Assembly (NCBI GenBank): GCA_031291955.1
Contig: JARLIA010000005.1
Coordinates: forward strand, 141,224-205,223
Length of the DNA stretch: 64,000 nt
Direction of reading: 5' to 3'
Origin: Minisyncoccota bacterium
GTDB taxonomy: Bacteria; Patescibacteriota; Minisyncoccia; Moranbacterales; UBA2206
The notes under the pieces are model-generated. The model was not told the DNA's origin and searched no databases. It was given only the letters and a program-made list of their open reading frames with translations. Below are positions 23,755 to 63,872 of this stretch, one piece after another. Every line of letters begins with the position of its first letter. The first letter of the stretch is position 1. The position numbers and the translations under genes were made by a program.

Positions 23755-23821
23755 ATAAAAAAAAGAAATTAGATACGATTAAAATCCAAATTACAAAATT
23801 TGAAATTTGTAATTTATTTGT

Positions 23822-30812: not shown

Positions 30813-30921
30813 TGATTTACGAACTACGAAAAGAATACGAAATACGAAAATACGAATAGAAATTCAGAAACTGAGAAATTGGAAATTAAGAAAGTTATAA
30901 TTTATAGACTGTGATAAAATT

Positions 30922-37866: not shown

Positions 37867-37930
37867 TTTCCGCCAGAGGCGGATCAGCCTTTGGCTGAAA
37901 AAGTTAAAAATGAAAAGTTAAAAGTAAAAA

Positions 37931-38530
37931 ATGAAGAATAAAAAGAAAAAAAATAAATTGGCAGGTTTTTCGCTCATTGAGATGATTGTGGCGATGGCGA
38001 TCGCCGTTATTATCATGCTGGCGGTCGTAGCGGCCTTTGCCGGCATGGTAAAAACCAGAAACACCGTCCGGGACGAACAGCAGGATCTGGAAAACGCGCG
38101 GAACGCCATGGACACAATGGCCAAGGAATTGAGGTTCAGTTCCGATGTCTCGATAAATGGAAGTGGCGGATCTGGTAAGGAAATTGCTTTTTATGACAAC
38201 TCTTCTCTTAAGTGCACAATTTATAGACTTGCTAGCGGAAAAATTCAAATGGCCGAAGCGGATCCCGTTTCGACAGCTACCGATCCTAATCAATTCTGCC
38301 ACAATGGTGGCTCGAACTCTATTGCATATTTCAATGCTAGTGGTACATATAGAGACCTCACTTCCGTTAATTCCGGCGGCATGACTATTAGCAATCTTCC
38401 CGGCTTAGGCAGCCTTGAGTTCAATCTCGATCCGCAAGCGTCGACTCATGTCGGCAAGGCTACCATACTAATGACTGTGGATGGATACAGTCTTCAAACA
38501 ACAGTCTCATTCCGCAACTATTCCGATTAA
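37931..38530 (+). CDS. Minor pilin / pseudopilin (PilW-like)
   Basis: LAGFSLIEMIVAMAIAVIIMLAVV prepilin signal. Confidence 0.7.
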   Translation: MKNKKKKNKLAGFSLIEMIVAMAIAVIIMLAVVAAFAGMVKTRNTVRDEQQDLENARNAMDTMAKELRFSSDVSINGSGGSGKEIAFYDNSSLKCTIYRLASGKIQMAEADPVSTATDPNQFCHNGGSNSIAYFNASGTYRDLTSVNSGGMTISNLPGLGSLEFNLDPQASTHVGKATILMTVDGYSLQTTVSFRNYSD

Positions 38531-38565
38531 TAATTAATTAATTTATTTAATTGATATAAAAAAAT

Positions 38566-39375
38566 ATGAAAATGAAAAAAAATAAGGCCTCGGTGTTGGC
38601 AGTGTCGCTCATAATTTTGGGTATCGTCTTGGTGAGCGCTCTCACTTTCTCACTGGCCACGCTTGAGCAAAGGAAGGCTTCCATCGGTTCGTCCCATTCC
38701 GACCAAGCCTATCAAAACGCCGAGTCGGGCGTGGAGGAAGCTATGAGTGTGATTTTGGAATTTCCAAGTAGTTCAGTTGGAAGCCTGGGTTATAGTTGTT
38801 CGGGTAGTGGCAGTATTGCAACTTACACATCCAGCGCTAATCACTATATAATACAGTTGAAAAAAAGCGATTCCAGTGGTGAAAGCTATATAACGGATTG
38901 TAGCACGAAAGCCAGCGAGGTGGCTGATATAAAATCTGTCGGCATGGACATTGCCAGTCAGAACACGCGGGCGATCGAGGCGGCGGTGGCAATGGGAACA
39001 TGCAGCTCGGGAATCTATCAGGGAAAAACAAGCCCTCACAACGGAGCGGCGGGTGGATACACCGGAGCCAATAATCTCTGCAGCCAAGCTTTCCCATCAA
39101 TATCAGGTATCCATGTTTGCAGTGCCAATGAAATTTTGAACAGCATTAACTGCGGAGGTAAACCCTTGGATTCTGGTTGGTATTCTGCTGGTACGTTCGG
39201 AGTTAACTCTGGTGCTAAAAATGAATTTGATGATTGTGTTGGGTGGACTTCTAGCGCTTCTAGCCCTGATTCTGGTTATGGTGCGGTGGGATTTTTCTGG
39301 AATACCAGCAAAGGAGATGGCTATCCGGATAGAGATGATTGCAATCAGACTCATTCTTTTTTATGTTGTAAATAA
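38566..39375 (+). CDS. PilX-like pilus-associated protein, Cys-rich C-terminus
   Basis: N-terminal hydrophobic anchor without a G-F site (KASVLAVSLIILGIVLVSA). Cys-rich C-terminus (CNQTHSFLCCK). Last gene of the minor pilin cluster. Confidence 0.45.
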   Translation: MKMKKNKASVLAVSLIILGIVLVSALTFSLATLEQRKASIGSSHSDQAYQNAESGVEEAMSVILEFPSSSVGSLGYSCSGSGSIATYTSSANHYIIQLKKSDSSGESYITDCSTKASEVADIKSVGMDIASQNTRAIEAAVAMGTCSSGIYQGKTSPHNGAAGGYTGANNLCSQAFPSISGIHVCSANEILNSINCGGKPLDSGWYSAGTFGVNSGAKNEFDDCVGWTSSASSPDSGYGAVGFFWNTSKGDGYPDRDDCNQTHSFLCCK

Positions 39376-39415
39376 TTGAATCGTCTTTTTCAATTCAGCT
39401 TTTGTTAATGAAATT

Positions 39416-39444
39416 AAAAAAACGGATCCAATCCGTTTTTTTAT
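39416..39444 (+). terminator. Intrinsic terminator, followed by a ligA promoter
   Basis: AACGGAT-CCA-ATCCGTT then T7. After it, TTGGAA-N16-TATAAT ends 6 nt before the ligA ATG, which suggests a leaderless transcript. Confidence 0.6.
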
Positions 39445-39475
39445 TTGGAAATTAGCGTACTTGGGGTATAATTAA

Positions 39476-41593
<2,118 letters not shown>

Positions 41594-41607
41594 AGAGATT
41601 TGGGTTA

Positions 41608-41907
41608 TTGGGGAAATTAAATTTTATGTTATCCAAAGACGAAGTAAAACATATCGCCGCTCTGGCCCGGGTCGGGTTGTCAGAAGTTGACATTGAGAAG
41701 TTTCAAAAAGACTTGTCGGGCATTTTGGATTTTGTCGAACAGCTGAAAGAGGTGGATGTTGACGGCGTCGAGCCAGCCGCCCACATCACGGGACTCACGA
41801 ATCGCACGAGAGAAGACAGGGCTGAAAATTTTGAGAACAAGGAAGGGATCGTGAAATTGTTTCCGGAGGAGAAGGACGGGTATGACAAAGTTAAGTCGGT
41901 ACTTTAA
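41608..41907 (+). CDS. gatC: Asp/Glu-tRNA amidotransferase subunit C
   Basis: VKHIAALARVGLSEVDIEKFQKDLSGILDFVEQL. 99 aa. Confidence 0.85.
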   Translation: MGKLNFMLSKDEVKHIAALARVGLSEVDIEKFQKDLSGILDFVEQLKEVDVDGVEPAAHITGLTNRTREDRAENFENKEGIVKLFPEEKDGYDKVKSVL

Positions 41908-42032
41908 ATTTCTAATTTTCAATTTCTAATTTCTAAACAATTTCCAATTTATCAATGAATAAAATTTTAATTTTAAAATTGTATCATTGAAAATTGTTTG
42001 AAAATTGAAAATTGTGAATTGAAAATTACAGT
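41905..42032. repeat. Heptamer-repeat inverted-repeat intergenic element, copy A
   Basis: Left arm AATTTCTAATTTTCAATTTCTAATTTCTAAACAATTTCCAAT. An inverted, degenerate right arm TGAAAATTGTTTGAAAATTGAAAATTG. Fills the gatC-gatA spacer. Confidence 0.7.
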
Positions 42033-43514
42033 ATGATCCGTGAGCTGCACGAAAAATTAATCAATAAAGAAACGACTTCGGTGAAACTTACGGAAGAATA
42101 TTTTGCCACGATCGAAAAGAAGGACAAAGATATTTTTGCCTATTTGACACTCACCAAAGACTTGGCGATGGAACAGGCGGCGCGAGTGGACGAGAAGATT
42201 AAAAATGGCGAAGAAATAAATTTGCTCGAGGGTATTCCTGGGGCCGTAAAAGACGTGCTTTGCACCAAAGGTGTCAGGACGACGGCCGGCTCGAAAATTC
42301 TGGACAATTACATCGCGCCCTACGACGCGACGGCGGTGGCGAAACTGAAAGAAGCCGGCGCGGTCATCTTGGGAAAAACCAATTGCGACGAGTTTGCCAT
42401 GGGCTCCAGCACCGAAAACAGCGCCTATGGTCCGACCAAAAACCCGCACGATCTATCCCGCGTCCCGGGCGGATCTTCTGGCGGTTCGGCGGCGGCCGTG
42501 GCGGCCGGCGAGGCCGTTTGGGCGCTGGGAACCGACACGGGCGGCTCAATTCGCCAGCCCGCTCACTTTTGCGGTGTGGTGGGGCTGAAGACCACTTACG
42601 GTCGGGTGTCTCGCTCGGGCCTCATGGCCATGGCTTCCAGTTTCGATTCAGTCGGAACGTTTGCCAAAACGGTGGAAGACGCGGCCATTGTGCTTTCGGC
42701 TATTTCTGGCCGCGACAAATACGATGCCACCTCCGGGGATAGTTTCGACAAAAGATTCGAGGACTATCTGACTGGGGACGTGAAAGACATGAAAATCGGT
42801 GTTGTCCAAGAATATTTTGCCAATTTGGAATTGGGCATGAAAAAGAAAATGGAAGAAGTGGTTGAGCGGTACAAAAAAATGGGCGCGGAAATCATTGATA
42901 TTGAATTGCCGTATGCCAAATACGCCCTGCCAGCCTATTATGTTATCCAGCCATGTGAAGTCAGTTCCAACTTGGCGCGCTTTGACGGCATCAAATATGG
43001 CATGCGTGCAGATGATGAGAATCGTTCGGAGTTAGGGAAGTTAGGGAGTTTGGGGCTAGAGGGATTGCCGCGGACGCTGCTGGAAGCATATCTTGATACG
43101 CGGGAATATTTCCTTGGGTCCGAACCGAAAAGGCGGATTATGCTTGGCACCTATGCTTTGAGTTCCGGCTATTATGATGCCTATTATCTTCGGGCTCAGA
43201 AAGTCCGGGCACTGATCAAAAAAGATTTTGAGAAAGCTTTCAAGAATGTCGATATGGTGCTGATGCCAACCGCGCCGACACCGGCCTTCAAATTGGGCGA
43301 GAAGACGGATGATCCACTGGAGATGTATCTATCCGATATTTTCACCATCACTGCCAACATTATTGGAGCGCCGGCCATCTCTGTTCCGTGTGGCACGCTT
43401 GAAACGGATGGTAAGGATCTGCCGGTCGGTTTCCAACTTCTGGGAAAATGGTTCGACGAGGAAAATATGCTTCGGGCGGCCGACGCCTATGAAAAATCAA
43501 ATCTCAAAATATAA
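42033..43514 (+). CDS. gatA: Glu-tRNA(Gln) amidotransferase subunit A
   Basis: Amidase signature GGSSGGSAAAVAAGEA. Carries about a 16-aa insertion (ELGKLGSLGLEGLPRT) encoded by a G-run repeat at 43025-43063. Confidence 0.9.
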   Translation: MIRELHEKLINKETTSVKLTEEYFATIEKKDKDIFAYLTLTKDLAMEQAARVDEKIKNGEEINLLEGIPGAVKDVLCTKGVRTTAGSKILDNYIAPYDATAVAKLKEAGAVILGKTNCDEFAMGSSTENSAYGPTKNPHDLSRVPGGSSGGSAAAVAAGEAVWALGTDTGGSIRQPAHFCGVVGLKTTYGRVSRSGLMAMASSFDSVGTFAKTVEDAAIVLSAISGRDKYDATSGDSFDKRFEDYLTGDVKDMKIGVVQEYFANLELGMKKKMEEVVERYKKMGAEIIDIELPYAKYALPAYYVIQPCEVSSNLARFDGIKYGMRADDENRSELGKLGSLGLEGLPRTLLEAYLDTREYFLGSEPKRRIMLGTYALSSGYYDAYYLRAQKVRALIKKDFEKAFKNVDMVLMPTAPTPAFKLGEKTDDPLEMYLSDIFTITANIIGAPAISVPCGTLETDGKDLPVGFQLLGKWFDEENMLRAADAYEKSNLKI

Positions 43515-43520
43515 AAATCA

Positions 43521-44054
43521 ATGGACATCGTCAGTATCTTAATCAGTCTTGGCCAATGGATCGTGAGTTTTTATTATTCGCCGTTTTTCGCGGTGATAAA
43601 ATTTCTTTTGGGAATCTATGCCGTGGTTCTGCTGGCCGACATTGTCCTGATGCTCATCCAGCGGGGCTTGGGCGGAGATATCCGCGACACGCTCGTGGGC
43701 ATGAACGTGCCAGCCGAACTGACCACCAAGAGAAATCGCTTGGCCAAACGCTGGAGCAAGATCAGCGAAAAGATGAAAAGCGATAGCGAGTCGGCCTGGA
43801 AAGTGGCCATCATTGAAGCGGACAACATCATTGATGACTTGATAAAGCGAATGAGGTATCCCGGTGAGAATATGAGCGAACGCCTGGCTGGCATCAATCC
43901 CGGGCAGGTTGAAAATATCGAAGAATTGAGGCATGCCCACGAAGTCCGGAACCGCATCATCCACGAAGATGATTTAAAATTGACACGGGAACTCGCTGAC
44001 GAGACGATGGCAGCTTACGAAAATTTCCTTAAATATTTCGAGGTGCTGGAATAG
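43521..44054 (+). CDS. Hypothetical membrane protein
   Basis: Two N-terminal TM helices and a charged helical C-terminal region. No recognisable domain. Confidence 0.35.
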   Translation: MDIVSILISLGQWIVSFYYSPFFAVIKFLLGIYAVVLLADIVLMLIQRGLGGDIRDTLVGMNVPAELTTKRNRLAKRWSKISEKMKSDSESAWKVAIIEADNIIDDLIKRMRYPGENMSERLAGINPGQVENIEELRHAHEVRNRIIHEDDLKLTRELADETMAAYENFLKYFEVLE

Positions 44055-44164
44055 GAGAGATATTGATAAGAAACTCAGGTTGACATTGTATTATAATTCG
44101 GTTAGGATAGTAAATAGCTTGTTAACGTAAAATCGAATGTATATTCGATGTGTTGTTATATTGC

Positions 44165-44238
44165 AGCGGGGTAGAGCAGTCTGGTAGCTCGGGTGGCTCA
44201 TAACCACCAGGTCGTGGGTTCGAATCCCACCCCCGCAA
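44165..44238 (+). tRNA. tRNA-Met (anticodon CAT), possible initiator (1:72 A-A mismatch)
   Basis: AGCGGGGTAGAGCAGTCTGGTAGCTCGGGTGGCTCATAACCACC...GTGGGTTCGAATCCCACCCCCGCA. Position 1 and position 72 do not pair. No CCA encoded. Confidence 0.7.
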
Positions 44239-44252
44239 CATAGTTTATTTTT

Positions 44253-44326
44253 GCCAGGGTAGCTCAGCTGGCTAGAGCGCAGCACTCATAACGCTGAGGT
44301 CGAGAGTTCGAGTCTCTCCCCTGGTA
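44253..44326 (+). tRNA. tRNA with CAT anticodon (elongator Met or lysidine-modified Ile2)
   Basis: GCCAGGGTAGCTCAGCTGGCTAGAGCGCAGCACTCATAACGCTGAGGTCGAGAGTTCGAGTCTCTCCCCTGGTA. G1-U72 wobble. No CCA encoded. Confidence 0.7.
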
Positions 44327-44330
44327 CGCG

Positions 44331-44452
44331 AATGAAATTTTCAATTATCAATTTACAATTTTCAATGAACGCATAATTTCTTAATTTTTAATTTTGAAAT
44401 TAAATTATTAAAAATTGTTTAAAAATTAAAAATTGGAAATTCGAAATTTAAT
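44331..44452. repeat. Heptamer-repeat inverted-repeat element, copy B
   Basis: GAAATTTTCAATTATCAATTTACAATTTTCAATG ... AAAATTGTTTAAAAATTAAAAATTGGAAATTCGAAATTTA. The reverse complement of the right arm matches the canonical left arm. Lies between two tRNA genes. Confidence 0.65.
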
Positions 44453-44455
44453 CAT

Positions 44456-44532
44456 GGGGGCGTAGCTCAGTTGGTTAGAGCGACTGCCTGTCACGCAGTA
44501 GGTCGCCGGTTCGAGTCCGGTCGTCCCCGCCA
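44456..44532 (+). tRNA. tRNA-Asp (anticodon GTC), CCA encoded
   Basis: GGGGGCGTAGCTCAGTTGGTTAGAGCGACTGCCTGTCACGCAGTAGGTCGCCGGTTCGAGTCCGGTCGTCCCCGCCA. Followed by an AACCC-TTCAGT-GGGTT hairpin and a T-run (terminator at about 44534-44562). Confidence 0.8.
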
Positions 44533-44631
44533 GATAACCCTTCAGTGGGTTATTTTTTTGTGGCCGCTCGCTTGCCAGTCGCAAAATTTAAAAGCTATTG
44601 ACTTTTTTGCGATCTTGCCGGAAAATAGATA

Positions 44632-44976
44632 GTGGTTGCATGTAAGACACAATTTATGGAAGATAAAAATCCCGTCCGGGAAAAAAGCGGCAAAGAGGAG
44701 GGCGGGGAAACGAGAGCGCCATGGTGGCAGCCTGGTTTGGTACTTTTCACGAAACTTTCCGGCTGGATCGCCGTCCCGGTGGTGATTGCGGTTTTTCTGG
44801 GGGGGTGGCTCGACAAAAAGTTCGGCACGGCTCCTTGGTTGTTCCTGGCGACCGTCGGCGCGGCTTTTTTTCTGTCTATGTTTGGAATCGTGAGGGATGC
44901 AATGCAAGAGATGAAGAGGATTGAGAAAGAAACGGAAAACAAAAAATCAAAAGCTCAAAGACGAAATGTCAAATAA
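44632..44976 (+). CDS. AtpZ/AtpI-like small membrane protein preceding the atp operon
   Basis: Two TM helices (WIAVPVVIAVFLGGWLD, WLFLATVGAAFFLSMFGI) and its position immediately upstream of atpB. The likely start is ATG 44656. Confidence 0.5.
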   Translation: MVACKTQFMEDKNPVREKSGKEEGGETRAPWWQPGLVLFTKLSGWIAVPVVIAVFLGGWLDKKFGTAPWLFLATVGAAFFLSMFGIVRDAMQEMKRIEKETENKKSKAQRRNVK

Positions 44977-45048
44977 AATCAAAAGTCCAAATGACAAATA
45001 TTTTGAACTTTGATCTTTGAGCTTGATTTGAAATTTGGTCTTTGAATT

Positions 45049-45897
45049 TTGAAATTTATGTCAGCAATTACCGCCCAACCAAATACTCAAACTCAGGAGA
45101 CCCAGTCGCCTTTGTATGCCGAGCCGATCGCCAAAGCCGGCAACTTTACCATCACCAACTCTCTCCTTTCCAGCTGGCTGGCCGTGGCGATTCTGGTCAT
45201 TTTTTTTGTCGTCATCGGGCGGAAGGTGAAAAAGATTCCCGGCACACTCCAAAGTATTTTTGAGATTATCCTGGAAGAAGCTCTCAAGTTGGCCGACGGC
45301 GTGACTGGTAGCCGCAAAAAATCGGAGAAATTTCTGCCGGTCACCCTGGCTATTTTTTTGTTTGTTCTGGTCAACAATTGGCTGGGTCTGCTGCCAGGAT
45401 ATGGCAGCATCGGTTTTTTCCAGCATGAGGGTGGTCAATCGGCTTTTGTGCCGCTTCTCCGGGGCGGAGCGGCCGATCTCAACTTTACTCTGGCTTTAGG
45501 AATTTTTTCCGTAGTCATTTCCAATGTTTTGGGCATCATCATGGTTGGCACCTGGGAACATTTCAATAAGTTTGTCAACATGAAAGCGTTCCTTTCCATT
45601 CCGAGACAGATGAAAGAGGATATGTCGGTGCTCTTGGTCAATCCCATTAAAGCTTTCGTGGGACTGGTCGAGATCATCGGAGAAATCGCCAAAGTGGCTT
45701 CGCTGTCCTTCCGGTTGTTCGGCAACGTTTTCGCCGGCGAAGTGCTCCTGGCTTCGATGGCCGCCCTTTTCGCCTATTTCCTGCCGCTACCGTTCATGTT
45801 TTTGGAAATTGTCGTGGGGGTGATCCAGGCGCTCATTTTTGCCGTCCTGACGCTGGTTTATATGACCATCGCCACCCAAAACCACTCGGAACACTAA
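45049..45897 (+). CDS. atpB: F-type ATP synthase subunit a
   Basis: Conserved LSFRLFGNVFAGEVLL with the essential Arg. Confidence 0.9.
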   Translation: MKFMSAITAQPNTQTQETQSPLYAEPIAKAGNFTITNSLLSSWLAVAILVIFFVVIGRKVKKIPGTLQSIFEIILEEALKLADGVTGSRKKSEKFLPVTLAIFLFVLVNNWLGLLPGYGSIGFFQHEGGQSAFVPLLRGGAADLNFTLALGIFSVVISNVLGIIMVGTWEHFNKFVNMKAFLSIPRQMKEDMSVLLVNPIKAFVGLVEIIGEIAKVASLSFRLFGNVFAGEVLLASMAALFAYFLPLPFMFLEIVVGVIQALIFAVLTLVYMTIATQNHSEH

Positions 45898-45965
45898 AGG
45901 TAATTTTGATAATTAATTTAATTTAACTGCCAAGACGACGTTAAAAATCACACACCGTCGATTAA

Positions 45966-46193
<228 letters not shown>

Positions 46194-46234
46194 TATTTTT
46201 ATCCAGCTCCTCCGGATTTCAGGGAGCTGGAATA

Positions 46235-46393
46235 AGAATATTATTGAAATTTTCAATTTTCAATTTACAATTTTTCTGGCTACGCCAGATCTCGCGAAGC
46301 GAGACAAACAATTTCCAATGATTCAATTTTCAATTTAGAAATTTAGTCATTAGGGAATTGTTTAGAAATTAGAAATTGAAAATTAGAAATTAC
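46235..46393. repeat. Heptamer-repeat inverted-repeat element, copy C (with GC-rich hairpin inserts)
   Basis: ATTGAAATTTTCAATTTTCAATTTACAATTTTTC ... GAATTGTTTAGAAATTAGAAATTGAAAATTAGAAATTAC. Internal hairpins CTGGC-TAC-GCCAG and TCTCGC-GAA-GCGAGA. Preceded by a CCAGCTCC...GGAGCTGG hairpin after atpE. Confidence 0.65.
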
Positions 46394-46888
46394 TTTTCTA
46401 TGGGACAACTAATCTCCACATTTCACATCGAACTAAGCCAGTTGATCGCCCAGTTGGTTAATTTTGGCATTGTTCTTCTGGTGCTCTATCGCTTTGCCTA
46501 CCGGCCGGTGTTGAAAACTCTGAATGAGCGGACCAGAAAAATTGAAAAAGGAATAAAGGACGCCGAAGACGCCAAGAAAAAAATGGTCGAAATCGCCGAA
46601 GAGGAAAAAGCGGTTTTGGTGGCGGCCCGGAAAGAGGCGCAGGCCATCATCACCCAAGCCGAAAAGACGGCCGAAAAGGACGCTGAACTGATTGTCATCG
46701 CTGCGAAAGACCAGACGGAAAAACTTCTGGCCGACGCCCAAAAAGCCATCAAGCAAGAGAAAGAAAAAATGATCAGTGAAATCCGGGCGGACATCGCGGA
46801 GTTGGTGGTGGCGGCGACGGGGAAGATTATTTCGGAAAAAATGGATATATCAAAAGACAAGGAGTTGATTGAGTCCGCGTTGAAATAA
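46376..46888 (+). CDS. atpF: F-type ATP synthase subunit b
   Basis: Single TM then a long charged coiled coil. The likely start is ATG 46402 (MGQLIST); the six-frame ORF start lies inside the repeat element. Confidence 0.8.
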   Translation: MKIRNYFSMGQLISTFHIELSQLIAQLVNFGIVLLVLYRFAYRPVLKTLNERTRKIEKGIKDAEDAKKKMVEIAEEEKAVLVAARKEAQAIITQAEKTAEKDAELIVIAAKDQTEKLLADAQKAIKQEKEKMISEIRADIAELVVAATGKIISEKMDISKDKELIESALK

Positions 46889-46923
46889 GAAACTTAGGAA
46901 GCTTAAGAAACTTAGAAAAAAGC

Positions 46924-47325
46924 ATGAAGGTCACCCCGACACAATACGCCGACGCGCTATACGAAGCGACCAAAGACAAATCTCAGGAAGAGGTTGGTGG
47001 TTTTGCAGCTAACCTGGCTAAAGTTTTGGCGCATAACAACCAGCTGAGATTAAAAGACAAGATAATCGCTAAATTTTCCGAAATATACAACCGTGAAAAT
47101 TCCATCGTGGAAGCGGAAGTGATCAGTCGGGAAAAATTGGATGAAGAAGTACGTACCAAAGTACGTACTTCGTTAATGATTAAATACGGCGCCAAAGAAG
47201 TGATTTTGAATAATATTATTGACCCGAATATCAAAGGCGGAATTATTATAAAAGTCGGGGATGATGTGATGGACGGGACGGTTGATCGGCAATTGGCGGA
47301 GTTGAAAAGCTGTCTGAACCACTGA
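46924..47325 (+). CDS. atpH: F-type ATP synthase subunit delta (OSCP), short form
   Basis: OSCP-like helices. 133 aa. Contains a GAAGTACGTAC-CAAA-GTACGTACTTC palindrome at 47148-47174. Its last codons overlap the 23 nt atp repeat. Confidence 0.7.
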
Positions 47326-47334
47326 TTAACACAT
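47312..47334 (+). repeat. 23 nt exact repeat GTCTGAACCACTGATTAACACAT, copy 1
   Basis: Identical to 49885-49907. Overlaps the atpH stop codon, 36 nt upstream of the atpA start. Confidence 0.8.
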
Positions 47335-47369
47335 ATTCATTTAAAATTTTAAATTTCAAATTAAAAATT

Positions 47370-48878
47370 ATGAACAAGGATTACATCATCGAACAACTCA
47401 AAAAACAAATCGAAGGTTTTGAGGTGGCGGCCAAGACCGAGAAAGTTGGGACGGTTTCCGAGATCGGGGATGGCGTGGCGCGGATCACGGGACTCGGCGA
47501 CGCCATGGCTTCGGAAATGTTGGAATTTGAAAACGGGGCCGTGGGCGTGGCGTTGAACTTGGAAGAAGACCGGGTGGGCGCCATGGTGCTCGGAGAATAC
47601 ACCGACATCAAAGAAGGCGACCAAGTGAAATCGACCGGCCAGATTTTGTCCGTGCCTGTTGGAGAAAATTTCATTGGAAGAGTGATTAATCCACTGGGGA
47701 AACCTTTGGATGGCAAAGGCGATATCAAGAGCGAAAAATCATATCCGATTGAAAAGATTGCGCCGGGTGTCATCACTCGCCAGAAAGTGAACCAGCCGGT
47801 CCAGACTGGCATCAAAGCCATTGACGCCATGATTCCGATCGGTCGCGGCCAGCGCGAACTCATCATTGGCGACCGGCAAACCGGGAAGACGGCCGTGGCT
47901 ATCGACACGATCATCAACCAGAAAGGTCAAGATATGATCTGTATCTATGTCGCCATCGGCCAGAAGGAATCGAAAGTGGCCAGGATTGTCTCTGAACTCG
48001 AAAAGCACGGCGCCATGGAATATACGACCGTTGTTTTGGCCGGCGCGGCCGATCCGGCGCCGCTGTCGTTCATTGCGCCGTATGCCGGTTGCGCGCTCGG
48101 AGAATATTTTATGGACAAAGGCCAGGATGTTCTCATCGTTTATGATGATTTGTCCCGTCACGCCTGGAGCTATCGCCAAGTGTCGCTCATCTTGCGTCGT
48201 CCGCCGGGTCGCGAAGCTTATCCGGGCGACATTTTCTATCTTCATTCAAGACTTCTCGAGCGGAGCGCGAAGCTCTCAAAAGATTTCGGCGGCGGATCAA
48301 TCACCGCTCTTCCTATTATTGAAACGCAAGCCGGCGACGTTTCAGCTTACATTCCGACCAACGTCATTTCGATTACCGACGGCCAGATCTATCTGGAAGC
48401 GGATTTATTCTACAAAGGCGTGCGGCCGGCTTTGAACGTCGGCATTTCTGTCTCGCGCGTCGGCTCGGATGCTCAGACTAAAGCTATGAAAAAAGTGGCC
48501 GGCAAGCTCAAGCTGGATATGGCCCAGTTCCGGGAATTGGAAGCTTTTGCCCAATTCGGCTCAGACTTGGACGAAAAGACCAAGACGACTATAGAGCGCG
48601 GCAAACGGACGGTGGAAGTTTTGAAACAGGGACAGTATGAACCGATGGCGATGGAAAACGAAGTGGCCATCATCTATGCCGCTACCAACGGATTCTTGGA
48701 TGACGTCGCAGTGGAAAAAGTCGGCGCCTGGGAGCGTGATTTTCAAAAATATCTGAACAGTTCGGCCAAAGCCGTTTTAGATCTGATCCGGGAAAAGAAA
48801 GAATTGTCTAAAGAAGTTGTTTTGAAATTGGAAAAAGCGATTAAGGAATTTAAGGAAGTTTATCAGAACGGAAACTAA
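47370..48878 (+). CDS. atpA: F-type ATP synthase subunit alpha
   Basis: Walker [10 protein letters not shown]. 502 aa with full-length alpha architecture. Confidence 0.95.
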
Positions 48879-48910
48879 GAATCGCAATGATTATTGATAA
48901 TTGATATCTT

Positions 48911-49885
48911 ATGGCTAACAATACCCGAGAAATTAGACGTCGCATAAAATCCATCAACAGTACGCGAAAAATTACGCGTGCGATGGAGATGGTTTCGGCC
49001 GCCAAAATGAGGCGCGCGGTGGCGGCAGTATTGGCCATTCGGCCTTACGCCCACAGTGCTTGGAGCGTCCTGACCAATCTTGCCCGGGCTTTCGAGCAGT
49101 ACGGCGGACACGGTATGCTGGAAGTGCGAGAAGTCAAAAGTATCCTGATGATTGTGGTTTCCAGCAACCGAGGTCTTTGCGGCGCTTTCAACACTAACAT
49201 TGCCCGAAAGATCAGATATGAGTTGGATCATCCCGAGCGGCTCAAGATGAACCGGATCGGCAACAAAAAGATCGAATCGACAGTCAAGGATGGCGAGCTG
49301 AAAGTGGACTACATTACTATCGGCCGGAAAGCGGCCGAGATAATCGCCCGGGTGGACGGAAGCGACGCGCATGTCATCGCGAGTTTTGCCCATCTGACCT
49401 ATCAGCCGAAAGCCGAAGAAGTGCGGCCGCTGGCCAAATTGGTGATGGACGAATATCTCAAGAAAAATTATGACAAAGTGGTGATTGTTTATACCGATTA
49501 TGTTTCCGCCATCAACCAACAAACCAAAATTCGCCAAGTGCTGCCGATTTCCAAAGTGGATATCGAAAAGCAGATCGCCGAAATCGACCAACACGCCAAA
49601 GAATATGGACTCGTTGGACCGAAAGTAGAATACAAGATCGAACCGAGCCCGCGGGAAGTTTTGGAATTCATTTTTCCGCGCCTCATTGAAATGCAGATTT
49701 TCCACGCTATCGAAGAGTCGAATGCCTCCAAAGAATCGGCCCGCATGATCGCCATGCAAAACGCCACCGACGCGGCCGGCGACATGGCCCACAGTTTCAC
49801 CCTGGCCTACAACCAGATCAGGCAACAGAAGATCACTCAGGAGATCGCGGAAATTTCGGCGGGCGCGGCGGCGATCGAAAGTTAG
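48911..49885 (+). CDS. atpG: F-type ATP synthase subunit gamma
   Basis: N-terminal IRRRIKSINSTRKITRAMEMVSAAKMRRA and the C-terminal helix. Confidence 0.9.
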   Translation: MANNTREIRRRIKSINSTRKITRAMEMVSAAKMRRAVAAVLAIRPYAHSAWSVLTNLARAFEQYGGHGMLEVREVKSILMIVVSSNRGLCGAFNTNIARKIRYELDHPERLKMNRIGNKKIESTVKDGELKVDYITIGRKAAEIIARVDGSDAHVIASFAHLTYQPKAEEVRPLAKLVMDEYLKKNYDKVVIVYTDYVSAINQQTKIRQVLPISKVDIEKQIAEIDQHAKEYGLVGPKVEYKIEPSPREVLEFIFPRLIEMQIFHAIEESNASKESARMIAMQNATDAAGDMAHSFTLAYNQIRQQKITQEIAEISAGAAAIES

Positions 49886-49907
49886 TCTGAACCACTGATT
49901 AACACAT
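49885..49907 (+). repeat. 23 nt exact repeat GTCTGAACCACTGATTAACACAT, copy 2
   Basis: Begins at the G of the atpG stop codon. 66 nt upstream of the atpD start. Confidence 0.8.
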
Positions 49908-49963
49908 GAGGGCACGTGATTTCACTGAAATTTAACTGAAGTAAGTAAATTATTTTAAACTAG

Positions 49964-51379
<1,416 letters not shown>

Positions 51380-51395
51380 TAATTGCTTAACTTCG

Positions 51396-51524
51396 GAATT
51401 TCTAATTTTCAATTTCTAATTTCTAAACAATTTCCAATGTTTCAATGACTAAATTTTTTAACGTTTGATAAATTAAAAAATTATTGAATTGTTTGAAAAT
51501 TGAAAATTGAAAATTGAAAATTGG
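51396..51524. repeat. Heptamer-repeat inverted-repeat element, copy D
   Basis: GAATTTCTAATTTTCAATTTCTAATTTCTAAACAATTTCCAATGTTTCAATGACTAAATTTTTT ... TTGAATTGTTTGAAAATTGAAAATTGAAAATTGAAAATTGG. Fills the atpD-atpC spacer. Confidence 0.7.
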
Positions 51525-51947
51525 CTACCAATGTCAGATCTAACCATACAATTCAAAATAGTTACTCCAGAAAGAACTGTTTTCGAAGATACCGTCGATC
51601 AGGCTACTTTGCCAGTGACCGATGGAGAAGTGACGATTTTGCCGAATCACCGGAGCTATATCGCTAGCATGAAAGCCGGCGAGATCATGATTAAGAAAGG
51701 CGGAGAGGAAATTTTGCTTTCCACCTCTGGCGGCTTTTTGGAGTTTGCCGGAAATGAGTTGGTGATTTTGGCCGACACGGCCGAGCGGGCGGAAGAGATT
51801 GATTTGAAACGCGCCGAAGAAGCCAAAGCGCGGGCCGAGAAATTGAAAGGCGAAGCGACAGTGGCGGCGGCTATCCAAAAACACGCGGCCCGGATTCAAG
51901 TGGCGCGGAAACATTATACGAAAAAAGGAATAAGGATGGGAGAATAG
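51507..51947 (+). CDS. atpC: F-type ATP synthase subunit epsilon
   Basis: Beta-sandwich plus helical hairpin (LPVTDGEVTILPNHRSYIASMKAGEIMIK). The probable true start is ATG 51531 (MSDLTIQ). Confidence 0.85.
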   Translation: MKIENWLPMSDLTIQFKIVTPERTVFEDTVDQATLPVTDGEVTILPNHRSYIASMKAGEIMIKKGGEEILLSTSGGFLEFAGNELVILADTAERAEEIDLKRAEEAKARAEKLKGEATVAAAIQKHAARIQVARKHYTKKGIRMGE

Positions 51948-51952
51948 CATTA

Positions 51953-52077
51953 AAATTTCTAATTTTCAATTTCTAATTTCTAAACAATTTCCAATGTTTT
52001 AATGATTAAATTTTCAAACAAAAGCTTAGTTGAAAATTGATGACTTGAAGAATTGTTTAAAAATTAAAAATTATCGA
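51953..52077. repeat. Heptamer-repeat inverted-repeat element, copy E
   Basis: The left arm is identical over about 46 nt to copies A and D (AATTTCTAATTTTCAATTTCTAATTTCTAAACAATTTCCAATGTTT). Right arm GAATTGTTTAAAAATTAAAAATTATCG. Confidence 0.7.
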
Positions 52078-52084
52078 GTCTATT

Positions 52085-52531
52085 ATGAAAACATCATTCA
52101 AATTCAAAGATGTCCACGCTTGCGACGCGGTCGTGCTGACTTGTATCGACTTTCGTTTTTGGAAAGAGACGGTTGAATTTATTGAAAAAGAGCTGGGAAT
52201 CAAGTCTTTCGATTTTCCGTCGCTCCCCGGGGCGGCCAAAGCGATAAATGATTGCTTGGTTGATACGGATGTCGCTATGCAGTGCATTGGTGTGCCATGC
52301 AATCTTCACCACGCCAAAAAAATTGTGATCGTCAACCACCAGGACTGCGGCGCTTACGGCGGATCGGGAAAGTTTAATGGCGACGACGCGGAAGAACAGA
52401 AATTTCACGAGAGCGAACTCGCGAAAGCCAAAGAGAAAATCGCCACCAAGTTTTCGGAAAAAGAATTTGTTTTAATATACGCTAAATTGACCGACGACAA
52501 GGAAAATATTGAGTTCTTGACAGTCGGTTAA
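52085..52531 (+). CDS. Hypothetical protein with beta-carbonic-anhydrase-like CxDxR / HxxCG motifs
   Basis: CIDFR and VNHQDCGAYGG are spaced as in beta-CA zinc ligands, but the protein is only 148 aa and lacks other beta-CA signatures. Assignment is tentative. Confidence 0.25.
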   Translation: MKTSFKFKDVHACDAVVLTCIDFRFWKETVEFIEKELGIKSFDFPSLPGAAKAINDCLVDTDVAMQCIGVPCNLHHAKKIVIVNHQDCGAYGGSGKFNGDDAEEQKFHESELAKAKEKIATKFSEKEFVLIYAKLTDDKENIEFLTVG

Positions 52532-52602
52532 TTTTGGTGTAATATAGAAAGTTCGCATGGGGCGGACTTGATTTGTTGTTGTACTTTTAATCGGAGGGGA
52601 AA

Positions 52603-53190
52603 ATGCATTATCTGAAAGATGAAGAGCGTTCGTTCGTTCGCGATCTAAAAGTTGCTGATATCCTTAGGGAATATAAGATGGGTGAGCTCAAGGGTATTAC
52701 AAAAAACGGAGGCGTTGCCTTTTTCTGTGGAGATGGAGATATCGATGTGAGAAATTATCACGAAAAAACGATATCGCGAAGACCTCACGGGCAATCTCTG
52801 TTTGGCGGTGTACTCATTTATTCTCGGTTTTATCGAGGGTACAAAGGCAGCTTTGCTGCTGATTCTATCGAGAATGCTCTACTCGGCCTCAACGCTAAGG
52901 AGACTAAAACCGCATTCCTCTACCCGCATTATCCCTGTGGAATGGCTACGTATTTTGAGCACACCATCGAGGAAGTTTTTTTGATGGCGGCCGACACTCA
53001 TCTGCGTTTCATTTCCGAGTTCGGGTTTACGCCTGATAAAACCCACTCCTTTTTTCACGTGAAGCGCCTAAACAAAGGCGCTCGGGAGGAGCAAAATACT
53101 TATATTTTCGATGTAAAAAAGTATTTGGCTTTGATCGGAGCACCTATAATCACGCTCGGTCAGGCCTATATCTTGAAGCTTGCAGCGTAG
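52603..53190 (+). CDS. Hypothetical protein
   Basis: ORF with reasonable codon usage. No recognisable motifs. Confidence 0.3.
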   Translation: MHYLKDEERSFVRDLKVADILREYKMGELKGITKNGGVAFFCGDGDIDVRNYHEKTISRRPHGQSLFGGVLIYSRFYRGYKGSFAADSIENALLGLNAKETKTAFLYPHYPCGMATYFEHTIEEVFLMAADTHLRFISEFGFTPDKTHSFFHVKRLNKGAREEQNTYIFDVKKYLALIGAPIITLGQAYILKLAA

Positions 53191-53244
53191 TTCCCGCCTT
53201 TTTCAAAACGGCATCTCCGGCCATGTTTTTCCGGAAATGCCGTT

Positions 53245-53664
53245 TTATTTTTCCCGCCCGATTTTCCAAATAATAATTTGCAAATAAGAAGCGACACCGG
53301 CCAAGGCTAAAATTCCCAAGAAAATGATTCCGCCGGGAATTAAAAGATAAATATAGCTGACAAGAAGCGCCGTCCAAACGCCGGTGCACCAGGGACAATT
53401 TATCAAGTTGGAAAGTATCTCTCGCGGACCGGTGGAAAATTGCTTGAGGTAATCCCGGATGAAAGCCGTCACGCTGTCGTAGGTGAAAAGGCGAATGAGG
53501 CGGAAAGCCGCCAAAATCAGAATCAGAAAATGGGAAAGCGGAATGTTTTCCGGCCGGATGCCTACCGACCAAGCCAGAAAAGAAAGTCCGGCCGCCAACA
53601 CCAGAAAGACAACCGAGCTGATTACGTACCATTGATCCCGTTTGTGCATTAATAATCTTTCCAT
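53245..53664 (-). CDS. DUF1360-like integral membrane protein
   Basis: Three to four TM helices; FRLIRLFTYD and CPWCTGVW motifs. Confidence 0.4.
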   Translation of the reverse strand: MERLLMHKRDQWYVISSVVFLVLAAGLSFLAWSVGIRPENIPLSHFLILILAAFRLIRLFTYDSVTAFIRDYLKQFSTGPREILSNLINCPWCTGVWTALLVSYIYLLIPGGIIFLGILALAGVASYLQIIIWKIGREK

Positions 53665-53742
53665 ATTTTTTACTTTGTCTTAGCTTTTTAATTTTTCAAA
53701 AATTAGTACAAGGTGAGAATACTTTTATTCTTGGGATTTTTT

Positions 53743-53782
53743 GGAGGTACGTAATTAATTACGTAATTAGTTACGTACGTGG
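53743..53782. promoter_or_regulatory. TACGTA palindrome cluster in a divergent promoter region
   Basis: GGAGGTACGTAATTAATTACGTAATTAGTTACGTACGTGG has three TACGTA cores spaced 13 and 12 nt, including the 18 bp perfect palindrome TACGTAATTAATTACGTA. Lies between the DUF1360 gene and leuS. Confidence 0.45.
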
Positions 53783-53834
53783 AAAAGATGCCGTCGGCTT
53801 GAAAAAAGGGCGAGAATAGGTTAAAGTAGAGAAT

Positions 53835-56681
53835 ATGGATAAATATAACCCGAAATTCATTGAACCGAAGTGGCAGAAGTTCTGGGAAGAAGTGCGGATT
53901 TATAAGGATTATTCACGAAAAAAGAAGTTTTACGCTTTGGATATGTTTCCGTACCCATCCGGCGCAGGTTTGCATGTCGGTCATCCCAAAGGATACATTG
54001 CCACGGATGTCATTTCCCGTTTCAAGCTGCTGCAAGGCGCGAGCGTCCTTCACTCGATGGGCTGGGACGCTTTCGGTCTGCCGGCCGAGAACTACGCCCT
54101 CAAAAACAAGGTCCATCCCAGAGCGGCAGTTGAAGAAAATATCCAGACTTTCAAACGCCAGCTGGAACTGTTCGGCTTCACTTACGATTGGGATCGCGAA
54201 ATAAACACGACCGATCCGGAATTTTACAAATGGACCCAGTGGATATTTCTTAAAATGTTTGAAAAAGGCTTGGCCTATGAATCATCCGAACCGGTCAATT
54301 GGTGCCCGAGCTGCAAAACTGTTTTGGCCAACGAGGATTTGGAAAAAGGTCTTTGCGAACGGTGTGGCTCGCAGGTGATCCAGAAAAAATTGCGCCAGTG
54401 GGTTTTGAAAATGACTGATTATGCCGATCGGTTGCTTTGGGATTTGGATAATCCCGGTTTGGAATGGGAAGAAATGATTAAGGATCAGCAACGGAATTGG
54501 ATCGGGCGGAGCGAAGGCGTCCAATTCGCGCTGAAAATAAAAAATACGGAGGAAAAAATCGAAGTCTACACGACCCGGATTGACACGGTTTTTGGTATGA
54601 CCTACGCCGTGGTAGCGCCAGAGCATGAAATTATTGAAAAATTAAAAGGCCAGATTGAAAACTATCCGGAAGTCAAAGAATATATTATCCAATCGCAAAC
54701 GAAAACGGAACTTGAGCGGACGGAACTCCAGAAAGAAAAAACCGGCAAGGAACTCAAAGGATTAAAAATTATTAATCCTTTCAACAACGAAGAGCTGCCT
54801 CTTTATGTCGCGGATTACGTCCTTGGTTTTTACGGCACCGGTGCGGTGATGGCTGTCCCGGCGCATGACGAACGGGACTGGGAATTTGCGAAGAAATATA
54901 ATTTGACGATAAAACAAGTGATTGCTCCGTATTTCTATGATAGTGAAAATCCGCCCCGAAGTGATAAGAAAAAAGTAAACAGAACGGTTGTGCAGGGTAT
55001 CGTAAGAAATGGCGATCAGGTCTTACAAATCCGTTGGAAAAAATTCCCATGGAAAACCTTTGTAATTGGCGGAGCAGAAAAAGGTGAAACACTAGAGGAA
55101 GCGGTAAAACGTGAAGTGCAAGAAGAAACTGGCTACAAAAATTTCAAATCAGTTGAGCGTCTTGGCATGGAAATGCGTTCAGAATGGTTTGCTATTCATA
55201 AAGACGAAAATCGATACGCACATATGAACGCGTTTGTTTTAGAATTGGAAAATAAAGAAAAAGATGAGATCAGTGACCAAGAAAAGGCTATTCATGAAGT
55301 GGCCTGGGTATCGTTTGAAGATATCCCCTTTGGTTTTGCTCCAGTAGGAGAGCTACAATATTTTTGGCATGAACTTAATAATTTACCCTCGCCGTTTGTC
55401 CAGGATGGTGTAACGATTAATTCTGGTGAATTTTCAGAATTGAAATCTACGGAGGCCCGCGAAAAAATGACCGCGTGGCTGGAAGAAAATAATTTAGGGA
55501 AAAGAAAAGTAAATTACAAGATGCGCGACTGGGTTTTTTCGCGGCAGAGATATTGGGGCGAGCCGATTCCGATCATCCATTGCGAAAAATGCGGAACTGT
55601 CGCGGTGCCGGAGGATGAGCTGCCGGTGAAATTGCCGGAAGTGGAGAAGTACGAACCGACCGGAACGGGCGAGTCGCCGCTGGCCAATATTTCCGAGTGG
55701 GTGAATGTCAAATGTCCGCAGTGCGGCGGACCGGGAAAACGCGAGACCAACACCATGCCGCAGTGGGCCGGTTCCAGCTGGTATTATTTGCGATACATCG
55801 ACCCGAAAAATAGCGCGGCTCTTATCGATAAGGAAAAGGAAAAAGAATGGATGCCGGTTGATCTCTATATCGGTGGCATCGAACACGCGACGCGCCATCT
55901 TTTGTATGCGCGCTTTTGGCATAAATTTTTGTTTGATCTCGGCGTCGTGTCGACTGACGAGCCGTTCAAAAAACTGGTTCACGTCGGATTGATTTTGGCG
56001 GAAGACGGGCGCAAAATGTCCAAGCGCTGGGGAAATGTTATCAATCCTGACGAAGTAATCGTCCGTTTCGGGGCGGACGCCATGCGGCTTTATGAAATGT
56101 TCATGGGGCCGTTCACGCAAAGCATCGCCTGGAGCACGAACGGAGTGATTGGGATGTATCGGTTTTTAGAAAAAGTGTGGAAATTACGATCAAAGATCAG
56201 TGAACAAGAAGCAGTAAACAATAAAATGCAGAGCTTGGTGCATAAAACCATCAAGAAAGTTACGGAGGACATTGAAGCGATGCGGTTTAATACGGCCATC
56301 AGCCAGCTGATGATTTTGGCCAACGCTTTTGAGAAAGAAACTGAAATCAGTTTGCTTCATTATTCTTGCTTCTTGCTTCTGCTGGGTCCTTTCGCGCCGC
56401 ATATCGCCGAAGAGCTTTGGAACCAATTGGGACACAAAGAAAGTATTTTCAAAGAAAGCTGGCCGGCATATGACCCGGAATTTATAGTGGACGAAGAAAT
56501 CGAATTAGTCGTCCAGATCAATGGCAAAGTGAGGGACCGATTGAAAGTGGCGGCCGATATTTCCGAAGACAAAGCGAAAGAGCTGGCGCTCGGGAGGGAG
56601 AAGATTAAATCATTTATTGACGAAAAAGAAATCAAGAAAATTATTTATGTTAAAGGACGGTTGGTAAGTATCGTTATATAA
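53835..56681 (+). CDS. leuS: Leucyl-tRNA synthetase with a Nudix hydrolase domain inserted in the CP1 editing domain
   Basis: HIGH (HVGHPKGY), KMSKS (KMSKRWGN), and the CP1 editing domain (Thr-rich VYTTRIDT, GTGAVMAVPAHDERD). Between KYNLTIKQVIAP and DGVTINSGEF lies about a 150-aa insert with a perfect Nudix box GGAEKGETLEEAVKREVQEETGY (nt 55068-55136). Confidence 0.9.
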   Translation: MDKYNPKFIEPKWQKFWEEVRIYKDYSRKKKFYALDMFPYPSGAGLHVGHPKGYIATDVISRFKLLQGASVLHSMGWDAFGLPAENYALKNKVHPRAAVEENIQTFKRQLELFGFTYDWDREINTTDPEFYKWTQWIFLKMFEKGLAYESSEPVNWCPSCKTVLANEDLEKGLCERCGSQVIQKKLRQWVLKMTDYADRLLWDLDNPGLEWEEMIKDQQRNWIGRSEGVQFALKIKNTEEKIEVYTTRIDTVFGMTYAVVAPEHEIIEKLKGQIENYPEVKEYIIQSQTKTELERTELQKEKTGKELKGLKIINPFNNEELPLYVADYVLGFYGTGAVMAVPAHDERDWEFAKKYNLTIKQVIAPYFYDSENPPRSDKKKVNRTVVQGIVRNGDQVLQIRWKKFPWKTFVIGGAEKGETLEEAVKREVQEETGYKNFKSVERLGMEMRSEWFAIHKDENRYAHMNAFVLELENKEKDEISDQEKAIHEVAWVSFEDIPFGFAPVGELQYFWHELNNLPSPFVQDGVTINSGEFSELKSTEAREKMTAWLEENNLGKRKVNYKMRDWVFSRQRYWGEPIPIIHCEKCGTVAVPEDELPVKLPEVEKYEPTGTGESPLANISEWVNVKCPQCGGPGKRETNTMPQWAGSSWYYLRYIDPKNSAALIDKEKEKEWMPVDLYIGGIEHATRHLLYARFWHKFLFDLGVVSTDEPFKKLVHVGLILAEDGRKMSKRWGNVINPDEVIVRFGADAMRLYEMFMGPFTQSIAWSTNGVIGMYRFLEKVWKLRSKISEQEAVNNKMQSLVHKTIKKVTEDIEAMRFNTAISQLMILANAFEKETEISLLHYSCFLLLLGPFAPHIAEELWNQLGHKESIFKESWPAYDPEFIVDEEIELVVQINGKVRDRLKVAADISEDKAKELALGREKIKSFIDEKEIKKIIYVKGRLVSIVI

Positions 56682-56685
56682 AAAT

Positions 56686-57438: not shown

Positions 57439-57448
57439 TTTATAAATT

Positions 57449-63041: not shown

Positions 63042-63073
63042 ACCTTTCTCTCTCTGTTATTTTGACTCTTTGT

Positions 63074-63121
63074 CCCTCGGATTCTTTGACACTTGGAATC
63101 CGGGGGATTTTTTTGTATAAT
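63074..63121 (+). terminator. Intrinsic terminator after the target gene, then an extended -10 promoter TGTATAAT
   Basis: CCCTCGGATTC-TTTGACACTTG-GAATCCGGGGG with T7. TGTATAAT at 63114-63121 could drive the TR transcript. Confidence 0.5.
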
Positions 63122-63462: not shown

Positions 63463-63480
63463 TTGCTAATTTTCTCCCGT

Positions 63481-63840: not shown

Positions 63841-63872
63841 CTCCCTTGGGGGGGGGCGTTAAAGGGTTGTAA

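Follow-up and report, generated by a model that had tools for sequence, protein, structure and literature searches.

The stretch of DNA analysed here, a 64,000-nt segment referred to throughout as the window, comes from a Minisyncoccota bacterium (Patescibacteriota; Moranbacterales; UBA2206; assembly GCA_031291955.1, contig JARLIA010000005.1, positions 141,224 to 205,223) and carries ligA, the gatCA genes, neighbouring tRNA genes and the atp operon, among which a family of AT-rich inverted-repeat elements is dispersed. A first-pass annotation had claimed five copies of this repeat, and all of them are present where it placed them: in the gatC|gatA, tRNA-Met|tRNA-Asp, atpE|atpF and atpD|atpC spacers and between atpC and the next gene. 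The elements are about 115-145 nt long, with about 16-19% GC, their limits in the window being those given by an nhmmer profile built from the copies.

Copy A (41907-42027, plus strand; profile 70.8 bits) fills the gatC|gatA spacer as an open reading frame (ORF)-less hairpin of the intervening-sequence (IVS) type, its first base overlapping the gatC stop codon and its end lying 5 nt before the gatA ATG; its 42-nt arms are 79% complementary and its predicted RNA fold reaches -27.8 kcal/mol (z -4.5). Copy C (46248-46391, plus strand; 75.6 bits) lies between atpE and atpF, 8 nt separating its end from the atpF ATG, and folds at -49.8 kcal/mol (z -9.5). It is built of outer heptad arms, an inner core hairpin and, as the first-pass annotation had noticed, GC mini-hairpins, of which there are two (46276-46288 and 46290-46304); similar ones also flank the rRNA-borne copies described below. 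Copy D (51397-51522, plus strand; 77.3 bits) occupies the atpD|atpC spacer and ends 8 nt before the atpC ATG, with 36-nt arms that are 83% complementary (fold z -3.9), and copy E (51954-52077, plus strand; 61.9 bits) lies between atpC and a Pro_CA_2 gene and has an eroded right arm. The degenerate copy B (44336-44448), between tRNA-Met (44253-44327) and tRNA-Asp (44456-44532), is of ambiguous orientation, with 49.8 and 49.3 bits on the two strands.

The left arm, AATTTCTAATTTTCAATTTCTAATTTCTAAACAATTTCCAAT, had been described as identical over 46 nt in three copies, which slightly overstates the case: the identity extends over 42 nt in A, D and E, and over 46 nt in D and E only. The inverted right arm (AATTGTTTGAAAATTGAAAATTG...) is present as claimed, and the arms able to form a stem measure 22-42 nt and are 79-91% complementary. 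With up to two mismatches allowed, the core motif AAACAATTTCCAATNNTNNAAT occurs six times in the window, against 0.03 occurrences expected from shuffles. An Rfam scan of positions 38000-56000, at E up to 1, matched only the tRNAs and no curated family for the repeats.

What these repeats derive from is indicated by ORF-bearing relatives. At locus L037 (5920-6394; L numbers denote loci fetched for comparison) arms of the family type enclose a gene for a 121-aa protein of PF05635 (‘23S rRNA-intervening sequence protein’, E 5.7e-19), and at both of its ends this element can be aligned with copies D, E and A of the window, the aligned parts including the first ~8 codons of the intervening-sequence protein (IVP) gene (CAATGACnAAnTTTCAAAC) and the junction between its TAG and the arm. 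Copy E keeps remnants of the gene at both places, namely its first ~8 codons (TAATGATTAAATTTTCAAACAAAAGC) and its stop-codon region (TAGTTGAAAATT). Since they align to both ends of an ORF-bearing copy, we regard the window copies as internal-deletion derivatives. The linkage of gene and arms is general: all eight PF05635 homologues in the fetched loci, several of them in atp operon spacers, are enclosed by inverted repeats that have the heptad period, measure 27-59 nt and stand about 350-490 nt from each other, and three more, reached through a protein index (L225-L227), are flanked by AATTTCC-type arms, which makes 11 of 11 bracketed. Arms of other sequence families enclose the PF05635 genes of L117, L057, L099, L058, L126 and L139, and ORF-bearing and ORF-less forms exist in three sequence families (L037 and the window; L117/L057 and the atpZ|atpB spacer of L196; L099 and L194). 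PF05635 is homologous to Avd, a protein of diversity-generating retroelements (DGRs; PMC10053308).

Members of the family also reside in rRNA itself. The copy at L034 (7703-7832) interrupts the 23S rRNA directly after position ~583 of the large-subunit (LSU) model, in helix 25, and that at L036 (7636-7814) lies within a 225-nt insertion in the loop of 16S helix 40, small GC hairpins standing on each side of the element in both cases. The classical insertion sites of IVSs are 23S helices 9, 25 and 45. Copies at L059 adjoin a tmRNA gene and a tRNA gene; the window copies themselves lie outside rRNA. On the basis of this rRNA residence, of the PF05635 gene found between the same arms and of the deletion-derivative alignment, we consider it likely that the repeats are ORF-less internal-deletion derivatives of an IVS-type palindromic selfish element that is widespread in Patescibacteria.

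Two observations on the same RNA genes may be recorded separately. Compared with the bacterial LSU model, the 23S gene of L034 (6890-8000) contains three more insertions, 115 nt long near position 228, about 55 nt long near 282 and about 30 nt long near 313, and in a tRNA cluster of a Moraniibacteriota metagenome-assembled genome (MAG) an Rfam group I intron (L089, 5498-5846; 77.7 bits) directly follows a tRNA match.

Beyond the window, a single 22-nt core motif, searched for in one genome per species, gave at least 114 loci, about 45 of which hold true copies among the matches listed, nearly all in Patescibacteria MAGs, and these figures are minimum and biased estimates because the scan was seeded with that one motif. 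The bearing groups among the matches listed include Moranbacteria, Parcubacteria, Zambryskibacteria, Harrisonbacteria, Campbellbacteria and others. The search of related genomes that the first-pass annotation had recommended thus found copies in dozens of other genomes, some of them 78-90% identical to the window copies across the full ~125 nt, and the profile delimits 86 non-overlapping copies in the window and the fetched loci. Their termini are sharp (AATTT…AAATT) and their flanks unrelated; the loci that they occupy vary from one genome to the next and either orientation is found, with a sense-strand bias of about 14:4 among confident calls. For the most part they are found in, and nearly fill, very short spacers between co-directional genes, the downstream end of the element typically being 5-10 nt from the next start codon.

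Given these contexts, the view that the repeats form a dispersed family of non-autonomous palindromic elements within operons, presumably co-transcribed with their neighbours, appears well founded. The first-pass annotation had itself raised the possibility that the copies were an artefact of a single repeated locus, produced in assembly or, we add, in binning, and a short-read assembly does break 20 nt upstream of copy D. However, every copy has unique flanks that continue intact genes, loops and right arms differ between copies, and the family recurs in many unrelated assemblies; moreover, contig JARLIB010000061.1, from an independent assembly, is 100% identical to window positions 51376-58574, spanning both D and E, and therefore the copies are not an assembly artefact of a single locus, an explanation to which we assign a vanishingly small probability.

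Repeats of this kind might also be thought of as classical miniature inverted-repeat transposable elements (MITEs), in which a transposase encoded by an insertion sequence (IS) acts in trans on terminal repeats in double-stranded DNA and any hairpin potential is incidental. Short, AT-rich, dispersed copies with defined termini, inverted arms and presence/absence polymorphism at orthologous sites are what that reading expects, and in most copies the arms differ systematically (TCT versus TTC heptads), as they would in master-derived copies not selected for perfect pairing. Yet 33 full-length copies have no consistent target-site duplication (a duplication of the palindromic AATT would be indistinguishable from the termini), no transposase lies between matching arms in ~1.9 Mb of fetched sequence, where every long version contains a PF05635 gene instead, and copies sit at rRNA helix tips, so that we think a MITE origin unlikely. 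Of the first-pass reading as a MITE- or repetitive extragenic palindromic (REP)-like family, the dispersed non-autonomous repeat family survives; the transposase-type MITE or the REP probably does not. REP/BIME elements are recognized as GC-rich palindromes of 20-40 nt accompanied by RAYT, a Y1 transposase, and no RAYT was seen here. TIGR arrays, CRISPR-like arrays and the REP/RAYT system were likewise rejected on account of their unfitting anatomy. As for carriage by phages, the 21-nt core had no exact match, and 22 matches to a degenerate motif failed the profile.

Occasionally the family has entered coding sequences. A degenerate sixth copy, F (41122-41221, plus strand; profile E 5.5e-8 over model positions 1-121), which the first-pass annotation had missed, lies in frame in ligA, its heptad arrays being translated inside the HhH domain of LigA, where the window protein has 16-20 residues more than solved LigA structures. 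An insertion at the same point is found in 54 of 120 close LigA homologues and is absent from the rest, and the inserted peptides are heptads read in frame: EFSIFNFQFS from (AATTTTC)n, EFPISNFQFP from (AATTTCC)n and EIPNSKFQIP from (AAATTCC)n, to which some insertions add segments resembling the GC mini-hairpins of copy C. Its distribution is patchy on a poorly resolved neighbour-joining tree, with 30 changes against 39.8 in shuffles. In other MAGs an arm plus core is read in frame (NFQFSISNFQTISN) in pyruvate kinase, in two O-antigen-ligase-like membrane proteins and in a prepilin peptidase. The right arm, (GAAAATT)n, has TGA in all three frames, which fits the observation that the in-frame survivors have only arrays of the left-arm type.

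Further observations concern these proteins. The 5' part of the window ligA (39793-39828) holds a second heptad-like run, AAAAAATTCAAAATTCAAAATTCAAAATTTGAAA, translated just upstream of the LigA adenylation motif, and the lengths of LigA homologues, 680 to 843 aa, suggest that insertions may occur at other points too. At L227, two element-like stretches (818-1062; LIFNFQFSIFNKFSIINFQTIQ…) lie inside one prepilin peptidase gene, with an IVP-bearing element directly downstream of it and a second ORF with a PF05635/bAvd domain 1.4 kb further on.

The first-pass annotation had offered a functional interpretation, in which the repeats act in RNA processing or stability and so set the stoichiometry of the atp subunits; put more broadly, they would be host-selected cis-regulatory hairpins that control processing, stability and translation. 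The atpD|atpC spacer was compared in 80 AtpC-anchored metagenome loci, close relatives being drawn from a protein index. The spacer is either 0-30 nt long or 100-160 nt long and filled, in the latter case by this family (L123, L128, L134, L149), by heptad hairpins of other families or by GC-rich hairpin modules, and occupancy over the atp operon as a whole is patchy from genome to genome. Locus L196, whose AtpC is 90% identical to that of the window, has different hairpins in most atp spacers and a ~55-nt CAATGAA hairpin where the atpB|atpE spacer of the window is ‘empty’; in L197-L200 (AtpC 87%) the left flank of the D site is that of the window, and the element there is 62 nt long; and L201/L202 (AtpC 84%) carry another family at the E site.

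A regulatory role would accord with the frequency of hairpins in the atp spacers of relatives, about half of the atpD|atpC spacers being long, with the placing of the element's end close to the downstream start codon in many copies, with the modest sense-strand bias and with a slight covariation excess (see below). Against it, however, what a given spacer contains (nothing, a shorter copy or a different family) changes even at 84-90% AtpC identity, and in some relatives the spacer measures only 0-12 nt. Furthermore, the same element is also found in rRNA, between tRNA genes, beside tmRNA, in gatCA and inside coding sequences, and the stems of two window copies (B and E) have decayed. Such turnover at orthologous sites speaks against regulation being fixed at particular atp junctions, and the proposed dedicated role in atp stoichiometry is not borne out; we hold host-selected regulation to be distinctly improbable and suggest that the elements are most probably passengers, neutral or of mild consequence, rather than dedicated regulators.

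Other structures lie in the same atp spacers. Hairpin G (44939-45061, plus strand), in the atpZ|atpB spacer, has the same architecture as the family and belongs to a different sequence family: its 60-nt arms have the heptad period TTTGANC and are 70% complementary (fold z -3.1), and its AAATGACAAAT-type heptads recur in L201/L202 and L149. Its left arm (44939-44976) supplies the final ~12 residues, together with the stop codon, of an AtpZ/ATPase_gene1-like ORF (44632-44976), and the C-terminus of this protein has therefore apparently been remodelled by insertion of the element. In the atpB|atpE spacer a small hairpin, GACGACGTTAAAAATCACACACCGTCG (45934-45961), stands upstream of atpE; both its sequence and its position are conserved in L196, it can be recognized in L115, L118, L120 and L116, and it may represent a leader structure of atpE that is conserved and separate from the mobile hairpins. 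Another short repeat, ACACATGAGGGCACGTGATTTCACTGAA, occupies positions 49902-49929 of the atpG|atpD spacer and is found in L196 at the edge of an 871-nt insertion in atpH|atpA, which carries a 115-aa reverse-strand ORF with no Pfam match. The atpD|atpC spacer of L145 holds a PDDEXK_3 (GxxExxY-type) gene, and recurrent GC-rich hairpin modules (GTCATTCCCGCGAAAGCGGGAATGAC; TGTCATCCTGAAC…GTTCAGGATGACA) are present in spacers of L118, L120, L121, L142, L158 and L169.

With regard to the anatomy of the family, 41 aligned copies resolve into AATT-NNN heptads in which AATT is almost invariant and the variable bases favour pyrimidines in the 5' arm and purines in the 3' arm; a conserved core, AAACAATTTCCAAT(G)nTTCAATGAC, comes after the 5' arm. 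To judge from their appearance, the copies descend from a master sequence whose arms were slightly asymmetric. The strand asymmetry of the arms (a 5' arm without G, a 3' arm without C) was considered as a signal of transcript sense and rejected, because it is invariant when a palindrome is reverse-complemented. Heptad periodicity is a general property of such spacers: in 31 of 51 long AT-rich spacers the best autocorrelation lag is 7, compared with 2 of 51 shuffles.

Alternatively, the elements might arise locally, heptads being produced by replication slippage in AT-rich spacers, palindromes by template switching and the likeness between copies by gene conversion. Heptads are indeed homogenized within arrays (a LigA insertion consists throughout of AATTTTC, AATTTCC or AAATTCC heptads, depending on the species), one architecture is common to many unrelated sequence families, and the number of repeats varies between Coxiella strains (PMC4990558). 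Local origin fails, however, to account for full-length copies, loop included, that are 78-90% identical at unrelated loci of species with AtpC proteins that share only 57-70% identity, for the sharply conserved termini and for the relationship between ORF-bearing and ORF-less forms. Slippage probably contributes to the turnover of arrays and does not explain their dispersal; as an account of the family as a whole, local origin seems to us very improbable.

Four more sequences of the heptad type, all belonging to other families, were seen elsewhere in the window and are given in window order: a CATATTA/GCATGTT hairpin (9074-9168; z -4.2); a small AAATTACAAAATTTG hairpin (23755-23821); a solo purine-rich arm of TACGAAA and GAAATTN heptads without a partner (30813-30921); and two GC mini-hairpins followed by AAAAGTT heptads (37867-37930).

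Returning to the IVS-type element, we propose the following mechanism. A full-length element would consist of two imperfect inverted arms of tandem AATT-NNN heptads around a PF05635 (23S_rRNA_IVP) gene of ~121 codons, the product of which is predicted to be a four-helix bundle homologous to Avd, and the short copies would retain the arms together with remnants of the start and stop regions of the gene. The family would insert into transcribed DNA, that is, into rRNA helix tips, spacers adjoining tRNA and tmRNA genes and the very short spacers of co-directional operons, and only occasionally into coding sequences, where just those arrays that can be read through would survive, as in-frame peptides. 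Upon transcription the arms would pair into a long AU-rich stem, which RNase III may cleave, as experiments have shown it to do in the IVSs of 23S rRNA; in rRNA the element would thereby be removed, while in an operon the polycistronic RNA would be cut between cistrons, and the A/G-rich 3' arm would remain, unstructured, as the leader of the next cistron, 5-10 nt ahead of its start codon. Genes for RNase III are present in the element-bearing loci L034, L043 and L061.

Such a leader should be harmless because this lineage makes almost no use of Shine-Dalgarno (SD) sites. The canonical SD motif precedes 1 of 66 predicted window genes, upstream regions being A/T-rich, and the 16S rRNA of a related MAG (L036, 7252-7290) ends GGAUUAUUUCAAAA, without the CCUCC anti-SD; the lineage thus appears to initiate translation without SD pairing. 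The idea that the elements displace or replace SD sites was rejected, the window as a whole being without them.

Several points weigh against this interpretation. Only analogy makes it plausible that RNase III cuts the copies carried by mRNA. The long imperfect hairpins foreseen by the first-pass annotation clearly beat shuffles in copies A, C and D, when structure was predicted for each copy, and do not in B and E (z -1.3 and -0.6), the stems of which have decayed. RNAalifold returned no consensus structure for the 41 aligned copies, for which reason arm pairing was imposed by hand in the covariation test, and covariation was weak: 84.0% of cells are paired compared with 83.5% in shuffles, and only the count of pair types (37 versus 30.2) beats all of the shuffles. 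The stems, moreover, are AU-only apart from a conserved C·A mismatch that recurs in nearly every heptad next to a U·G or C·G pair. Selection for pairing is accordingly weakly supported at best and, covariation being only marginal, we make no claim of structure-driven selection. The arms of L037 are only about 75% identical to the window copies, and at that locus alone the IVP gene might conceivably have been inserted, nested, into a pre-existing hairpin. Neither a target-site duplication nor a mobility enzyme has been identified for the family. Finally, the distribution figures carry the bias stated above, and the record titles of some loci (for example L034, ‘Gammaproteobacteria’) conflict with an assignment to Patescibacteria; such titles we judge, from protein similarity only, to be mislabelled.

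It is formally conceivable, though we give the idea little credence, that IVSs are a general class of transcript-resident mobile hairpins for which the Avd-like protein is the mobility factor, the RNA excised by RNase III being copied by a resident reverse transcriptase and re-inserted, and the ORF-less forms being mobilized in trans. If true, such retro-mobility would explain the preference for transcribed sites and for helix and loop tips, the lack of target duplications, the sense bias and the spread across contexts. As an observation in its own right, the end of the window (62403-64000) holds a complete-looking DGR, with a target gene at 62403-63041 and a variable repeat (VR, 62917-63038) and template repeat (TR, 63346-63467) that are 88% identical, 14 of their ~15 mismatches falling on TR adenines. 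The minus strand carries an Avd-like four-helix-bundle ORF (63840-63481). The ORF that starts at 63881 (N-terminus MKIQLAHKFEDIVSVENLLEAWKEF…) is cut by the window end and has no Pfam match; its N-terminus resembles that of a DGR-type reverse transcriptase, the enzyme of the Bordetella phage.

The family gives the IVS problem a comparative handle, since one family would constitute a dispersed autonomous/non-autonomous system across many Patescibacteria, with many insertion sites, empty sites, deletion derivatives and an Avd-homologous ORF available for comparison. It would account for a large share of the unexpectedly long spacers in these streamlined genomes and for part of the well-known rRNA insertions; in annotation it explains recurrent low-complexity insertions (NFQFSISNFQTISN-like) in conserved proteins, and in assembly it breaks short-read contigs. 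A further prediction of the proposal is that, where translation starts without SD sites, operon transcripts may be punctuated by RNase III.

Among known systems, rRNA IVSs and their four-helix-bundle ORF have been familiar for over 30 years. The IVS of Coxiella is a 428-nt element in helix 45 with a 28-bp terminal stem and an S23p ORF, excised by RNase III and containing tandem heptameric repeats whose number varies between strains; the origin, mobility and function of IVS and S23p are described as unclear, an old proposal being that the ORF serves mobility (PMC4990558). Our family has in common with the rRNA IVSs of Salmonella, Leptospira, Coxiella and others the long terminal stem, the optional PF05635 ORF in the loop, heptameric repeats in the stem (as in Coxiella), a 23S site of the helix-25 type (L034) and a selfish character. 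It differs from them in lying mostly outside rRNA (in the spacers of mRNA operons, in tRNA and tmRNA spacers and in frame within ORFs), in mostly being without an ORF and in forming a multi-copy, multi-genome family in Patescibacteria with stems almost purely of A/U with periodic mismatches.

The RPEs (Rickettsia palindromic elements) reportedly described by Ogata and co-workers in 2000 are said to be palindromes of ~100-150 nt in a reduced genome, in intergenic regions and RNA genes and also in frame within conserved protein genes, to whose products they contribute an extra peptide. The likeness to our in-frame copies (in LigA, pyruvate kinase, prepilin peptidase and O-antigen-ligase-like proteins) is behavioural only, and we know of no link between RPEs and a PF05635 gene, rRNA helix tips or heptad-repeat arms. 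REP/BIME, ERIC, BOX and MIRU repeats are likewise intergenic, transcribed and structured repeats in operons, MIRUs too lying in very short spacers; they differ in size, in composition (REPs being short and GC-rich) and in partner genes (RAYT for REP), and to our knowledge none has been reported in rRNA helices or linked to PF05635. In the literature searched on MITEs and palindromic elements of Patescibacteria, Parcubacteria and Moranbacteria we found no description of elements like these. The Correia elements of Neisseria (NEMIS/CREE), finally, are ~100-155 bp long with inverted repeats, lie in abundance near or between genes and are co-transcribed into mRNAs, in which their hairpin is cut by RNase III with consequent changes in transcript stability. 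Their 26-bp terminal inverted repeats, TA target duplication, IHF site and frequent promoters were not found in the window family; these elements offer the closest functional model for a possible role of the operon-borne copies.

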